From Candidatus Aminicenantes bacterium (GTDB lineage: Bacteria; Acidobacteriota; Aminicenantia; Aminicenantales; UBA4085), in the NCBI GenBank assembly GCA_030691735.1, contig JAUYDS010000118.1, positions 21,536-85,535 of the forward strand: DNA of 64,000 nt, in the 5' to 3' direction. Numbering within the stretch: position 1 is the first letter of the stretch; each line of letters opens with the position of its first letter. A program made the translations under genes and the position numbers. Shown piece after piece: positions 5,656 to 49,977 of the stretch. The notes under the pieces were generated by a model. It was not told where the DNA came from and did no database searches. It saw only the letters and a list, made by a program, of their open reading frames with translations.

Positions 5656-5669
5656 AGCGCCGTCCGCGG

Positions 5670-5835
5670 TCAAGGGACGAGCCTTCGCGGCGGAAGTACT
5701 CACCCATGTCTTATATTTACGGGTGAGTACGGCGGAAACGGATCCCCAGACGAAGTCTGGGGCCCCTGCCGCCGTGGACCCCCGGGCAAAGCCCGGGGCC
5801 CCGGGCTTTCCCTTGGCGGCCGACGGATCGCTCGG
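5670..5835 (-). repeat. Mosaic palindromic repeat element family A, copy 1 (reverse orientation), intergenic
   Basis: Contains the same modules as copies at 18305, 18636, 29501, 30124 and 49703: the GTCAAGGGACGAGCCTTCG end, a CCCCGGGC-AAA-GCCCGGGG hairpin, and a GTACTCACCC...GGGTGAGTAC hairpin. Confidence 0.85.
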
Positions 5836-17588: not shown

Positions 17589-17969
17589 TTACGGCTGGAC
17601 CTGGAAATTCCTGTCGAGCTTCACCGAAACGAGCTGGCTCCGGCTTTTGATCGAAACGTCCGATTTGACGAACGCGACTGTCCCGGAAAGACAAAGGTCG
17701 AACCGCTTTTCGAGAAAAAAGGTCTGCGGGACCCTGAGGCAAAGCAGGAGCTTGGTCCCGATCATCACCTTGGATTGAAGGCAGAGAACGGCCTCTTGGG
17801 CGCTGAGCGACGAGACTTCCGTCTGTTCCGAAAATTCCCGTTCGGCGGCGTCGAAGCCTTTGACCAGCGCGGGAAGAGAGAGCTCGAAGGACCGCTCCCT
17901 CTTCCGCGTTTCGGAAAAACCTTGAATGGAAGAGGTGCCGTTTATGTTCATATCCATGAGAGTGATCAA
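17589..17969 (-). CDS. PilZ domain protein (partially degenerate motifs)
   Basis: RKRER (RxxxR) present; second motif EVSSLS deviates from D/NxSxxG. Confidence 0.65.
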   Translation of the reverse strand: MITLMDMNINGTSSIQGFSETRKRERSFELSLPALVKGFDAAEREFSEQTEVSSLSAQEAVLCLQSKVMIGTKLLLCLRVPQTFFLEKRFDLCLSGTVAFVKSDVSIKSRSQLVSVKLDRNFQVQP

Positions 17970-18466
17970 GCCTCGGGTCGGATGATGTATTTGCTGTCGA
18001 ACTTGATCGTGACCTTCTGGCGGATGAGACGGTCGCGGTCGGCTTCGACTTGGGTCACTTTGCCTTTGATGACCATTTTCAGGGACTTGTCCTGGGCGAG
18101 CTTCTCCGGCAGGTCGATGATCAGTTTCAACCGCATGCCGATATTGATCGGATTCTTGAGGTAAAACGTCGATCCCTCGTGACTGATGTAGGTCAGGACC
18201 GTGTCCTCGGCGAATTCTTTTCCCTGGGCGTTCAAGCCCTCGACTTGGGTCGGCAGGGGAAAGGTGAATCCCTGATCCCGACCTGCCGGGGTGTGCGGAC
18301 CTTCGACGGCGGCCGGGGCGGCGGCAGGGGCCCCAGGCTTTGTCTGGGGATCCGTTTCCGCCGTACTCAGCCGCGTATTTACATCGCGGGTGAGTGCCCC
18401 GGGCTTTGCCCGGGGTTCCACTTCCGCCGCGAAGGCTCGTCCCTTGACATATGGCTCTTTTGTCAT
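17966..18466 (-). CDS. PilZ domain protein carrying an in-frame family A repeat insertion in its N-terminal region
   Basis: C-terminal PilZ fold (MRLKLIIDLPE...KGKVTQVE...VTIKFD); N-terminal residues 10-55 (RAFAAEVEPRAKPGALTRDVNTRLSTAETDPQTKPGAPAAAPAAV) are encoded by repeat element 18305..18448; RxxxR motif absent. Confidence 0.6.
   Translation of the reverse strand: MTKEPYVKGRAFAAEVEPRAKPGALTRDVNTRLSTAETDPQTKPGAPAAAPAAVEGPHTPAGRDQGFTFPLPTQVEGLNAQGKEFAEDTVLTYISHEGSTFYLKNPINIGMRLKLIIDLPEKLAQDKSLKMVIKGKVTQVEADRDRLIRQKVTIKFDSKYIIRPEA
18305..18448 (+). repeat. Mosaic palindromic repeat element family A, copy 2 (inside the PilZ gene 17966..18466)
   Basis: Shares the CCCCGGGCTTTGCCCGGGG hairpin, the GTACTCAGCCGCG...CGCGGGTGAGTG hairpin and the GAAGGCTCGTCCCTTGAC end with the other copies. 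Confidence 0.85.
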
Positions 18467-18635: not shown

Positions 18636-18774
18636 AGCGGCCGGGGCCCCGGGCTTTGCAGTCCTCATTCGCGAAGCGAATGAGGGCGGGCTTTGCTCGG
18701 GGGTCCACTTCCGCCGTACTCGCCCGTGAATATAAGCCACGGGCGAGTGGCGAGCCGAAGGCTCGTCCCTTGAC
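18636..18774 (+). repeat. Mosaic palindromic repeat element family A, copy 3 (intergenic)
   Basis: Modules: GGCCGGGGCCCCGGGCTTTG, the CCTCATTCGC-GAA-GCGAATGAGG hairpin, the GTACTCGCCCGTG...CACGGGCGAGTGG hairpin, and the GAAGGCTCGTCCCTTGAC end. Confidence 0.85.
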
Positions 18775-29500: not shown

Positions 29501-29568
29501 TCCACGGCGGCCGGGGCCCCGGGCTTTGCCCGGGGGTCCACTTCCGCCGCGAAGGCTCGTCCCTTGAC
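29501..29568 (+). repeat. Mosaic palindromic repeat element family A, copy 4 (minimal form, intergenic)
   Basis: TCCACGGCGGCCGGGGCCCCGGGCTTTGCCCGGGGGTCCACTTCCGCCGCGAAGGCTCGTCCCTTGAC: the two ends plus the core hairpin only. Confidence 0.85.
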
Positions 29569-30016: not shown

Positions 30017-30121
30017 AATCCCCCCACACCCCCCCTTTACTTGGCGGGAAATCAGGTTCCCCCTTTCCTAAAGCGGGCAATCAGTTCCCCCCTTTTCTAA
30101 AGGGGGGTTAGGGGGGATTAT
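30017..30121 (+). repeat. Repeat family B: tandem C5-8/G5-8 clamp hairpins (CCCCCTTTTCTAAAGGGGGG...GGGGGGATTAT)
   Basis: About 40 nt nearly identical to 46612-46652; several CCCCC-(A/T-rich loop)-GGGGG hairpins. Confidence 0.7.
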
Positions 30122-30123
30122 CA

Positions 30124-30303
30124 ACGGCGGCCGGGGCGGCGGCAGGGGCCCCAGGCTTTGCAGTCCTCATTTGCGAAGCGAATGAGGGCAGGCTTTGTCT
30201 GGGGATCCGTTTCCGCCGTACTCAGCCGCGTATTTACATCGCGGGTGAGTGCCCCGGGCTTTGCCCGGGGGTCCACTTCCGCCGCGAAGGCTCGTCCCTT
30301 GAC
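30124..30303 (+). repeat. Mosaic palindromic repeat element family A, copy 5 (longest form, intergenic)
   Basis: Contains all modules (the CCTCATTTGCGAAGCGAATGAGG hairpin, the GTACTCAGCCGCG hairpin, the core CCCGGG hairpin and both ends). Confidence 0.85.
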
Positions 30304-46395: not shown

Positions 46396-46507
46396 TCACG
46401 ACATCCCGATAGACGATAAACGGAGCCCGAGAGTTCCCTGACGGCTTGATGGATGGTCAGATATTTCCTGCGTCGGCCTATGGGCCCAATTTTCATGGAT
46501 GCGCCTA

Positions 46508-46652
46508 ATCCCCCTTGATCCCCCTTTAGAAAAGGGGGATTCCGAGAATTGACCCAGCTATTATAAAGGAGGATCTGAGATTTTATCCCCCCTTTTCTAA
46601 AAAGGGAGTCCCAGCTTCTTTCCCCCCCTTCTAAAGGGGGGAGGGGGGATTA
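46508..46652 (+). repeat. Repeat family B: tandem C/G-clamp hairpins (second locus)
   Basis: CCCCCTTTAGAAAAGGGGG, CCCCCCTTTTCTAAAAAGGGAG, CCCCCCCTTCTAAAGGGGGGAGGGGGGATTAT; the terminal ~40 nt match the 30082-30121 locus. Confidence 0.7.
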
Positions 46653-47092: not shown

Positions 47093-47200
47093 GAGGGGGG
47101 ACACGATACCCAGGAGAAAAGAATTTGTAGAGAATTCGCAGACACATACCGAATTCAGAGCGAAGCGAGGAATTCGGTATGTGTCTGCGAATTCCCCCCA
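47093..47200 (+). repeat. Repeat family C long hairpin (25-bp perfect inverted repeat GAATTCGCAGACACATACCGAATTC / GAATTCGGTATGTGTCTGCGAATTC)
   Basis: Perfect 25-bp arms with 13-nt loop, flanked by a G7/C7 outer inverted repeat; related to 41136 and 41411. Confidence 0.75.
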
Positions 47201-48191: not shown

Positions 48192-48232
48192 CACAGACCG
48201 TAAGTGGACCTAGGTCCACTTACGGTCTGTGG
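48192..48232. terminator. Bidirectional hairpin between convergent pirin and GH28 genes
   Basis: Perfect 19-bp inverted repeat CACAGACCGTAAGTGGACC-TA-GGTCCACTTACGGTCTGTG. Confidence 0.6.
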
Positions 48233-49977
48233 ACATGTTTTGCTCGGGGAGGAATGTTATTGAGTTCGCGAACGGTGGACGGGCCGACCTCCGGTTCTAT
48301 TTTGACGGCCGATCGGGCCGGCCGGAAATCGTTGCCGCTGAGGACGATGTCGTTCGTCCGCCGACCCGAGAACCGGAAGAACTCATCTGTTCCCAGAGCG
48401 GCCCGGCAGTTCCGGACCAGAGCCCCTTCGACCTGATGGAAAAGCACCGCCGGCGCGGTCTTGGCTTTTTCTGTCGCGGCCTGGCGCCCCACAAACCCGT
48501 CCAATTCGAGGCCCTGGACCTCATCCAGGCACAGAGCGCTTTCCCACTTCGCGTATTCCAGGCCGTCCCAGACGATCTCGACGTTCCTCAGCTTGAGGTT
48601 CCGGGCCCATTTGAACGTCAGGGCGTGAACGGCCTTATCGTAAGGCGCGGCTGGGTCGTGGGCGATGAACAGCGTCACGTTGTCCATCGTGATCCCCTCC
48701 AGCCAGCTGTCGGGATGCCCGTTGCAGACGCTGGCGCCCTGGCCGCGGGCGATGACGTTGGTGATCTTCACGTTCCGGATCCGCCCGGCCGGCCGGTCGT
48801 CCTCTTTTTTCCAATTCTTGTGCACCTCGCTCCGTTTCTTGATGTTGAAATGGAACGGCTCGCCGTCGCCCCACCAGAACCAGGCATAGCGGACGCAGTC
48901 GATGGTCAGATTGGACAGGACGACGTTCTCCACCACGCCGCCGTCGAAGTTCATGAAGGAGATGCCGCGATTGGCCTTGGTGATCACGCAGTTGTCGATG
49001 GTGACGTTCCGGACCGCGTTCATGTTGCCGTCGCAGAACTTGATGGCGCTCGAGGCGGAGGAGAGGCGGCAGTTGGTCACGGTGATGTTCTCGCAGGGGA
49101 GGGCCGGGCCGAACCAGTTCATGGAATAAAAGACGAGCGCGTCGTCGCCGGTTTCGATGGTGCAGTTCGAGATGCGGAGGTCCCTGCAGCCGTCAGGATC
49201 GATGCCGTCGGCCCAGACGCCGTCCTTGAGGCTGGAGCGGATGAATACGCCGTCGATGACCGTCCGTTCACAGCCGTAGAGATGCATGGTCCAAGACGGG
49301 GAATCGATGAAATTCAGGCCGCTGATGCGGACGTCCCGGCAGCGCAGCAAAAGAACGAGCTTCCCGAACTGGTCCTCCTTGGGGAAGCTGCGGACGAGCG
49401 GTTTGCCGAGCTTTTCCATCTCGACCTGGTTCGGGTAAATGAAGTCGTCGTGAAAATCTCCCTTCGGCCGGTAAACATAGCCGCCCTGGCCGTCGATGGT
49501 GCCCCGGCCTTCCAGGCTGATCTGGGTCAGGTCTTCGCCGTAGAACAGGGCGTCCTTGTCGAACGCCGCTTTGTTTTTGATCGAATAGATCGTCGCCCCC
49601 GCTTCGACGAAGAAACGGACATGGCTGCGGAGATGGATCGTCCCCGTCGCATATTGCCCCGGCGGAACATAGACCTGGCCGCCGCCCGCCGCGGCGCAAG
49701 CGTCCACGGCGGCCGGGGCCCCGGGCTTTGCCCGGGGGTCCACTTCCGCCGTACTCGCCCGTGGATACAAGCCACGGGCGAGTGGCGAGCCGAAGGCTCG
49801 TCCCTTGACCGCCTTTTGGATCGCCGCTTGAGCGCTCCCGGCCTTCGTTCCCGTCGCCCCGAAGTCCCGGATGTTGAAGATTTTTTGGCCCGACTGGCCG
49901 GCGAGGGCGGAAGGAATGAAAACGATCCCTCCCCAAACGATGATCCCGATCATTCTTCTGGCGAGCACGGTTCTCAT
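48220..49977 (-). CDS. Glycoside hydrolase family 28 (polygalacturonase-like) secreted enzyme carrying an in-frame family A repeat insertion
   Basis: GH28 parallel beta-helix motifs (NFIDSPSWTMHL, DGIDPDGCRDLRISNC, TGDDALVF); signal peptide; 34 extra residues (VKGRAFGSPLARGLYPRASTAEVDPRAKPGAPAA) between the conserved AIQKA and VDACAAAGGG. Confidence 0.8.
   Translation of the reverse strand: MRTVLARRMIGIIVWGGIVFIPSALAGQSGQKIFNIRDFGATGTKAGSAQAAIQKAVKGRAFGSPLARGLYPRASTAEVDPRAKPGAPAAVDACAAAGGGQVYVPPGQYATGTIHLRSHVRFFVEAGATIYSIKNKAAFDKDALFYGEDLTQISLEGRGTIDGQGGYVYRPKGDFHDDFIYPNQVEMEKLGKPLVRSFPKEDQFGKLVLLLRCRDVRISGLNFIDSPSWTMHLYGCERTVIDGVFIRSSLKDGVWADGIDPDGCRDLRISNCTIETGDDALVFYSMNWFGPALPCENITVTNCRLSSASSAIKFCDGNMNAVRNVTIDNCVITKANRGISFMNFDGGVVENVVLSNLTIDCVRYAWFWWGDGEPFHFNIKKRSEVHKNWKKEDDRPAGRIRNVKITNVIARGQGASVCNGHPDSWLEGITMDNVTLFIAHDPAAPYDKAVHALTFKWARNLKLRNVEIVWDGLEYAKWESALCLDEVQGLELDGFVGRQAATEKAKTAPAVLFHQVEGALVRNCRAALGTDEFFRFSGRRTNDIVLSGNDFRPARSAVKIEPEVGPSTVRELNNIPPRAKHVHRP
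49703..49809 (+). repeat. Mosaic palindromic repeat element family A, copy 6 (inside the GH28 gene)
   Basis: TCCACGGCGGCCGGGGCCCCGGGCTTTGCCCGGGGGTCCACTTCCGCC-GTACTCGCCCGTG...CACGGGCGAGTGG-...GAAGGCTCGTCCCTTGAC. Confidence 0.85.

Follow-up and report, generated by a model that had tools for sequence, protein, structure and literature searches.

A window of 64,000 nt from a Candidatus Aminicenantes bacterium (contig JAUYDS010000118.1, positions 21,536 to 85,535 of the forward strand; coordinates below are those of the window unless a locus is named) carries a GH28 glycoside hydrolase gene that is split, in frame, by a 102 nt repeat. The segment at 49708-49809 very probably represents a mobile repeat, non-autonomous and rich in GC (73%), that forms three hairpins, is specific to Aminicenantes (Acidobacteriota) and inserted here recently. 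The features at the insertion site are:

48220..49977, minus strand: GH28 glycoside hydrolase gene with the insert, 585 aa from ATG, with a signal-like N-terminal segment
49703..49707, plus strand: TCCAC of the host, which abuts the element on its 5′ side and is the complement of GTG GA in the Val-Asp codons
49708..49809, plus strand (top strand of the element): repeat copy of 102 nt, the exact gap relative to the empty allele in locus L001
49805..49809, plus strand: 3′ terminus of the element, TTGAC, invariant and resembling the motif of the 5′ flank

The Insertion in the GH28 Gene

The host gene is assigned to glycoside hydrolase family 28 by sequence and by predicted fold. Its product matches the Pfam profile PF00295 at 68.7 bits (cut-off 22.9), as well as PF12708 and PF13229, and the best PDB matches to its structural model are the GH28 exopolygalacturonases 3jur and 2uve. 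Homologs in Aminicenantes assemblies are annotated as GH28 or polygalacturonase. The window protein was aligned with 114 homologs (115 sequences in all), and the columns corresponding to D260/D262, G277-D278-D279 and K313 were invariant; all of these residues are present in the window protein, and the DPDG, TGDD and AIKF motifs are intact. The PF12708 match spans residues 33-151 yet uses just 86 profile positions, and this excess of span over profile is a hint of an insertion.

A first-pass annotation of this DNA had proposed that two segments that are normally contiguous in GH28 proteins, AIQKA and VDACAAAGGG, are separated here by 102 nt encoding 34 residues, and the homologs bear this out. 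The gene, on the minus strand, reads ...SAQAAIQKA, then VKGRAFGSPLARGLYPRASTAEVDPRAKPGAPAA (34 residues), then VDACAAAGGG..., and the 585 aa frame remains open throughout with no stop codon, again as proposed. The alignment shows one 34 aa insertion at the predicted position, and its columns hold no residues in any of the 114 homologs (0/114), which come from many Aminicenantes. The closest homolog, P0001, is 551 aa long, exactly 34 residues shorter, and has 97% identity outside the gap. At the DNA level, alignment with its contig (L001) gives one clean gap of 102 nt and no other at the site: the empty site is CAAAAGGCG|GTGGACGCT, while the filled site is CAAAAGGCG-GTCAAGGG...GGCCGCC-GTGGACGCT, with a junction ambiguity of 2 nt (GT on the gene strand, AC on the plus strand). 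The extent first given for the element, 49703-49809, needs a small correction; the 102 nt at 49708-49809 stand, but the first 5 nt (49703-49707) are the TCCAC of the host. Peptides encoded across the junctions and within the insert include AFGSPLAR, ASTAEVDPR and AKPGAPAAVDACAAAGGGQVYVPPGQYATGTIHLR.

The insertion appears young. Outside the insert, the filled and empty alleles share 97.7% nucleotide identity (dS 0.056, dN 0.0135), with a dN/dS of 0.24 that pools both lineages as well as the time before insertion. The inserted copy differs at a single loop position from the consensus of 88 copies of the 102 nt form, and is identical to 13 of them.

An ancestral origin of the 34 residues, followed by loss elsewhere, is very improbable, as is an artefact of assembly or sequencing. 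The exact 585 aa protein is absent from the protein collection, and the junction 22-mer found no match in JGI metagenome contigs, both of which would fit an artefact. Against this stand the homologs, all of which lack the segment, and the nature of the segment itself, a near-consensus copy of a dispersed repeat whose junctions are built like those of about 180 other copies. The two flanks run collinear with a single gene, and equivalent insertions within genes recur in independent assemblies, in the S9 peptidase (L036 and L094) and in the alpha-galactosidase (L088 and L162).

The Repeat Family

Two sets of loci were collected, one from GTDB genomes with the right-end 19-mer of the element, CGAAGGCTCGTCCCTTGAC, and an independent one from JGI metagenomes with a 33 nt left-end probe. 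Together they provided 1.37 Mb of Aminicenantes fragments sampled around repeat copies, the first part of which comprised 0.62 Mb. The invariant 19-mer occurs in at least 78 GTDB stretches, almost all of them metagenome-assembled Aminicenantes of several species, and the window plus 78 GTDB loci contain 95 right-end matches. The left-end probe recovered 113 JGI metagenome stretches, and a scan of viral contigs with the 19-mer found no match. The 1.37 Mb yielded 184 non-redundant copies that have both ends: 88 measure 102 nt, 45 measure 63 nt and 14 measure 101 nt, and the rarer composite copies are of about 128-180 nt. The 102 nt form consists of the 63 nt form plus a hairpin module of 39 nt.

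The insert had also been recognised at first pass as a copy of a dispersed repeat (family A), and this was correct. The window holds six copies, and the 23 nt core of the element has a chance expectation of 0.00 in shuffled sequences. The five copies outside the GH28 gene are:

5669..5810, minus strand: composite copy between genes, with convergent neighbours and a second unit after an internal TCCAC
18308..18448, plus strand: composite copy of 141 nt within a PilZ-domain gene, preceded by TCGAC (18303-18307)
18636..18774, plus strand: composite copy of 139 nt between genes, with an extra CCTCATTCGC-GAA-GCGAATGAGG hairpin module
29506..29568, plus strand: basic form of 63 nt (hairpin 1 and the 3′ end) between genes, preceded by TCCAC
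30126..30303, plus strand: composite copy of 178 nt between genes

The GH28 copy folds into three adjacent hairpins:

49706..49752, plus strand: hairpin 1, starting at the left junction, outer stem CGGCGGC/GCCGCCG around GGGGCCCCGGGC-TTT-GCCCGGGGGTCC
49753..49783, plus strand: hairpin 2, ACTCGCCCGTGG-ATACAAG-CCACGGGCGAGT, within the 39 nt module that distinguishes the 102 nt from the 63 nt form
49784..49803, plus strand: hairpin 3, GGCGAGCC-GAA-GGCTCGTCC, ending 6 nt before the right end

As single-stranded DNA, the GH28 copy folds at −46.2 kcal/mol (z = −6.2 relative to shuffled sequences) and the other strand folds alike, the fold z-scores overall being −6.2 and −5.8. In a subfamily variant of hairpin 2 (ACTCAGCCGCG...CGCGGGTGAGT), the stem is kept by changes on both sides. 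The right hairpin is weak or minimal in the 63 nt form. The 101 nt subfamily has a TT loop in hairpin 1 in place of TTT, and is concentrated in a few assemblies (loci L011, L020, L022, L032, L042, L050 and L071-L073). A search of the window at the Rfam gathering thresholds returned two tRNAs only, and no match to the repeat.

Hairpin 1 ends in an internal TCCAC, and in the copy at 5669-5810 (minus strand) a second unit starts right after such a TCCAC (window 5774-5810). This suggests nested insertion at the internal TCCAC as one source of the mosaic forms.

Intergenic copies have left their mark on gene annotation. At least 35 'hypothetical proteins' of a single Aminicenantes genome in NCBI (locus tags Q8O91_) are translated repeat copies, and dozens of called 'hypothetical proteins' of 40-107 aa (among P0121-P0197) are translations of copies lying between genes. 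In a protein search with a 61 aa element peptide, nearly all matches were short spurious open reading frames (ORFs) on intergenic repeats.

Other repeat families are present in the window at 30085-30120, 46506-46538, 46585-46648 and 47132-47194. One is made up of CCCCCCTTTTCTAAAGGGGGG-type units, and another is a perfect 25 nt inverted repeat, GAATTCGCAGACACATACCGAATTC, with a 13 nt spacer. Related GGGGACA..CCGAATTC..GAATTCGGTACGTGTCCCC palindromes are found in the JGI loci L089, L100 and L152.

Element Ends and Target Motif

The left boundary of the element is YCSAC|GGCGGCC..., and its right end is ...CCCTTGAC. Since TCCAC is already present in the empty GH28 allele (AGCGTCCAC|CGCC), the motif is part of the target, and the element does not supply it. 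The filled allele is TCCAC-[102 nt ending TTGAC]-CGCC, with AC alone in common.

The 5′ flank is conserved in both sets of loci. In the GTDB loci, the counts out of 83 were T53, C71, C38/G34 (S72), A64 and C76, and in the JGI loci, out of 94, they were T60, C90, G59/C30 (S89), A83 and C92; the left-end probe excludes the 5′ flank, making the JGI logo independent of it. YCSAC directly precedes the element in 68% of flanks, compared with a background of 0.56% per position. Downstream of the terminal TTGAC, the GTDB and JGI logos showed no conservation. The element has no terminal inverted repeats, its left end (GGCGGCCGGGGCC) being unlike the reverse complement of the right end, GTCAAGGGACGAG, and no clear target-site duplication was found in filled/empty comparisons, where there is at most a 2 nt AC ambiguity. 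Three such pairs are available, the window and L001, L071 and L042 (93.5% identity, with one mismatch in the target motif), and L036 and L021 (74% identity), where the motif position directly precedes the downstream flank. The element inserts immediately 3′ of a host YCSAC, bringing its own ...TTGAC end.

In-Frame Copies in Other Genes

The first-pass annotation had recommended looking for more copies within coding sequences. Copies were screened for a stop-free read-through ORF of at least 60-80 codons on each side, and the candidates were then run against Pfam. About two dozen genes other than the GH28 gene carry in-frame copies, including the PilZ-domain gene of the window. Intragenic copies make up 13% or more of the GTDB set and likewise of the JGI set (about 13-15%), and about 85% of copies lie between genes.

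One of the hosts is an essential DNA ligase:

L030 3202-5445, plus strand: LigA, NAD-dependent DNA ligase, with a 180 nt composite copy (60 aa) in the adenylation domain

Residues 184 and 246 of this protein align with residues 159 and 164 of the E. coli LigA chain (2owo), giving about 57 extra residues in the adenylation domain. Other hosts identified by Pfam are a nuoN-like antiporter subunit, an S9/DPPIV peptidase, an aldehyde:ferredoxin oxidoreductase, a PD40 propeller protein, a GT9 heptosyltransferase, BamA, a TonB-dependent receptor and an LptD-like protein. A second group comprises an alpha-galactosidase, two histidine kinases, PMT_2, a Zn-dependent alcohol dehydrogenase, MeaB, a sulfatase-TPR protein, QueA, DUF2207 and a methyltransferase. 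To these are added one more histidine kinase, a PIN-domain protein and a tyrosine recombinase, the integrase P0159 recovered by the search with the 61 aa element peptide. The cases of a GNAT-containing ORF, MsrB, the CCA-adding enzyme, PilN, ribulokinase and glucokinase are weaker, because the matched domain does not include the repeat or because the repeat terminates an incomplete sequence.

The PilZ-domain gene of the window (17966-18466, minus strand) encodes 166 aa, where homologs have 116-120 aa. Its insert of 141 nt adds 47 residues in frame after codon 6, between MTKEPY and VE, and all seven aligned homologs lack it (7/7). In L047 (1885-3840, minus strand), the C-terminal half of a cofactor-independent phosphoglycerate mutase, the 102 nt element and the N-terminal part of another such enzyme follow each other in one open frame; this arrangement could represent tandem genes fused via the repeat, or a rearrangement.

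Genes make use of four of the element's six frames: rc0 (VKGRAF...APAA|V[DE]), rc1 (SRDEPS...GPRP|PS), same1 (AAGAPGF...ARPL|T) and same0 (GGRGPG...SSLD). The two remaining frames contain stops or were met only as shadow ORFs.

C-terminal remnants of IS91-like transposases (CPHCGGKMRVIAFI...DRIIDHLKL) occur in L100 (473-898), L089 (3852-4028), L152 (990-1166) and L123 (3396-3700). In L123, a 102 nt element lies in frame inside the remnant, after ATCGAC.

The predominance of intergenic copies, often right after stop codons, raises the question of whether the repeats mainly serve the host as REP/BIME-like elements (for example by stabilising mRNA, ending transcripts or binding proteins), with copies inside genes as by-products. 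Their hairpins are strong and conserved, and between genomes with no more than 65-85% identity in their GH28 orthologs the element itself is conserved at 94-100%. Such a role is nevertheless improbable as the main explanation, as filled/empty polymorphism between near-identical alleles shows ongoing mobility, Rfam offers no match, and intragenic copies are far above what is expected of 'extragenic' elements. Host function and selfish spread are, in any case, compatible with each other.

Why Reading Frames Stay Open

The GH28 ORF stays open because the element is 3 × 34 nt long and is read in a stop-free frame. Across the family, copy length is divisible by three in 148/184 cases. Four frames of the 102 nt consensus have no stop codon, a number that rises to five in the ATACAAG variant.

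The target motif may contribute. Its complement is GTSGA, and in the empty GH28 allele 8/11 such sites on the template strand are in frame 0, where they form Val-Asp/Glu codon pairs. An element inserted at a frame-0 GTSGA site in that orientation is read in rc0, which has no stop codon. With a motif that coincides with a codon pair, a length that in most copies is a multiple of three and four to five stop-free frames, many intragenic insertions would be non-disruptive, and purifying selection would remove the disruptive ones while retaining those that are tolerated, giving a pattern like that of the Rickettsia palindromic elements (RPEs).

Two observations count against an element adapted to coding sequence. 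At 73% GC, 3.4 of 6 frames are expected to be open (a single frame is stop-free about 57% of the time), and the 4-5/6 found give no statistical support for a coding-compatible 'design'. The 14 copies of the 101 nt subfamily, moreover, have a length that is not a multiple of three; no copy of this subfamily was verified inside a gene.

Effect on the GH28 Enzyme

The insertion adds 34 Gly/Ala/Pro/Arg-rich residues that are predicted to be disordered. In the AlphaFold2 model of the empty allele (mean predicted local distance difference test, pLDDT, 91.9), residues 50-62 (AQAAIQKAVDACA) form a continuous helix with pLDDT 94-98. In the model of the filled allele (mean pLDDT 89.1), two pieces of this helix remain, 50-53 and 90-96, with pLDDT under 50 over residues 59-83 in between, and the remaining beta-helix is unchanged. 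AlphaFold2 is driven by the alignment and allows no judgement on fold stability or activity with the insert.

According to the models, the insert would thus leave the N-terminal capping helix midway as a disordered excursion and would not lengthen an existing loop. The enzyme had been expected at first pass to be still functional with an extra surface loop. The frame is indeed preserved, but the fold prediction places the disordered insert within a conserved helix that it splits, and the enzyme may or may not still be active. The intact motifs and the dN/dS of 0.24 are compatible with GH28 function, but they are no proof of it, since the insertion is recent.

The helix bears directly on a second reading of the locus, in which the insertion is real but inactivates the enzyme, the open frame is luck and the gene is a young pseudogene without other lesions as yet. 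A helix that is continuous and confidently predicted in the empty allele is cut in the filled one, and with one consensus mismatch and a dS of 0.056 it would be too early for decay to be seen. A stop-free frame is, in addition, the expected outcome in somewhat more than half of cases at this GC content. We regard this as unlikely, although it has to be taken seriously. The same family is found in frame, with no other lesions, in the hardly dispensable ligA, nuoN-like, bamA and queA genes, implying that such segments are often tolerated; the catalytic motifs and full length of the GH28 protein are intact, with a dN/dS well below one; and the capping helix is at the protein surface.

How the Element May Move

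For the movement of the repeat, we tentatively favour site-directed insertion beside YCSAC in which the enzyme acts in trans and is most likely a single-strand enzyme of the HUH type, though the case falls short of even. An HUH/Y1 transposase supplied in trans would move the element by single-strand 'peel-and-paste', as a miniature IS200/IS605 element (palindrome-associated transposable element, PATE), or in a REP/RAYT-like manner. The one-sided motif, the similar 3′ motif and the subterminal hairpins fit a single-strand mechanism, as does the fact that inverted repeats and a duplication are lacking.

Several results weigh against it. Searches by tblastn of the 0.62 and 1.37 Mb, with approximate IS608 TnpA, IS200 TnpA and E. 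coli RAYT queries that make for a weak test, found no Y1 transposase or RAYT below E = 0.3, and in the 1.37 Mb there is no copy whose left and right ends are parted by a gene. IS200/IS605 elements are expected to show an orientation bias. When the strand of the element was compared with local GC skew, a noisy proxy for the replication strand, there was no bias (85 positive vs 73 negative, p = 0.38). The left and right hairpins are dissimilar. Finally, AC is found at both junctions in nearly all copies, so a 2 bp duplication or a crossover core is possible. One weak RAYT-like match, beside a repeat fragment in L003, lies in a dapF-like gene. Lone left or right ends, considered as signs of a full-length insertion sequence (IS), could all be put down to truncation of the copy, to the end of a contig or to another repeat context.

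The AC at both junctions, the absent skew bias and the failure of the approximate queries to find a Y1 or RAYT gene in 1.37 Mb also favour mobility of the family by some other enzyme, either a recombinase with an AC core or duplication (IS607 serine, IS110 DEDD or DDE) or a rolling-circle enzyme of the IS91 type. The IS91-like transposase remnants in several repeat-bearing loci would fit the latter, but they are themselves insertion targets, as in L123, and were rejected as the mobilising source. There are also no terminal inverted repeats, and conservation is 5′ only, unlike DDE MITEs (miniature transposable elements with inverted repeats) or the two-sided targets of IS110; an IS110-type two-sided target was rejected, as nothing is conserved 3′ of the insertion. 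We consider mobilisation by one of these enzymes unlikely, though by no means negligible. Integron attC sites were rejected because R′/R″ motifs are absent, and inteins or introns because the 34 aa lack such features.

Comparison with Known Elements

The resemblance to RPEs was proposed in the first-pass annotation, and it is strengthened by the recurrence of in-frame copies in about two dozen unrelated genes. RPEs were described by Ogata et al. (2000, 2002), as summarised in a 2024 MITE review (PMC10969869). In both cases the elements are short dispersed hairpin repeats of about 100-150 bp without a gene of their own, a sizeable fraction is found in frame within housekeeping genes of unrelated kinds, to whose products it adds a conserved peptide, and a mobilising enzyme is known for neither. 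They differ in host, as Aminicenantes are free-living and uncultured whereas Rickettsia are obligate intracellular alpha-proteobacteria, and in structure, the Aminicenantes units being shorter (63 and 102 nt), modular and provided with a one-sided YCSAC target. The intragenic share is about 13-15% in Aminicenantes, compared with nearly half reported for R. conorii in that review (PMC10969869), and the GH28 copy splits a helix instead of being placed in an obvious loop. A relationship in sequence to RPEs is not expected. The repeat therefore appears to work like an RPE, but is not filed as a member of that family; it is likened to RPEs by behaviour only, all of its matches being from Aminicenantes/Acidobacteriota. 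The 2024 review describes in-frame palindromes as uncommonly frequent in Rickettsia and as no more than a conjecture outside it (PMC10969869), and our full-text literature searches turned up no earlier description of such elements from Aminicenantes.

The ends of the repeat have the anatomy of PATEs. These share with it the absence of terminal inverted repeats, target-site duplication and coding capacity, as well as a host pentanucleotide at the left end, a similar pentanucleotide ending the right end and hairpins near both ends. The features that it does not share are a matching autonomous IS or Y1 gene, which was not found in the 1.37 Mb, a strand bias, and similar hairpins at the two ends. 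PATEs are not known to insert systematically in frame within genes. A one-sided motif, a related terminal motif, hairpins and no duplication are the published hallmarks of IS200/IS605 'peel-and-paste' elements and of the miniature PATEs (PMC10055086, PMC3119063).

REP/BIME sequences and REPINs (RAYT) are likewise GC-rich hairpins of 20-40 nt, in mosaic arrays of high copy number that are mostly between genes, with a short conserved motif next to the hairpin. An extragenic location is part of the definition of REPs, which are grouped around a RAYT gene in clusters or inverted pairs. The Aminicenantes units, by contrast, are single and oriented, have defined ends and occur inside genes, and membership in this class was rejected on the grounds of an intragenic share of at least 13%, the single oriented units and the lack of any RAYT-like gene among the sequences searched. 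Classical MITEs (ERIC, Correia/NEMIS, QMITE1 and those of Anabaena) are also small and non-autonomous, and can form translational fusions in ORFs (PMC10969869, PMC3184786). Their terminal inverted repeats and DDE target-site duplications are absent from the Aminicenantes repeat, and a classical inverted-repeat MITE was rejected for this reason.

Implications

One practical consequence concerns annotation, as the repeats give rise to spurious gene calls, and host proteins that carry an insert may be misjudged in length-based quality control. More broadly, the family displays RPE-like behaviour, long deemed a peculiarity of Rickettsia, at scale in an unrelated, free-living and uncultured lineage. 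It has advantages over the Rickettsia elements in its filled and empty alleles of about 98% identity, its defined target motif and its defined ends. It can now be tested how such elements move, whether the frame is kept by codon-pair targeting, by length or by selection, and how 21-60 extra residues are tolerated.

Possibly, though with confidence no higher than that given to the HUH mechanism itself, the repeats constitute an independently evolved, phylum-wide form of 'protein-coding' selfish hairpin DNA, mobilised in trans by HUH/Y1 enzymes. The target, GTS-GAN on the opposite strand, would match the Val-Asp/Glu codon pairs favoured in a high-GC3 genome, and lengths mostly divisible by three together with stop-free frames would allow in-frame insertion and persistence even in essential proteins (LigA, NuoN-like, BamA and QueA). 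If this HUH-mobilised coding-hairpin reading is true, the Aminicenantes repeats would represent a second system beside the RPEs, and a continuing source of new peptide segments.

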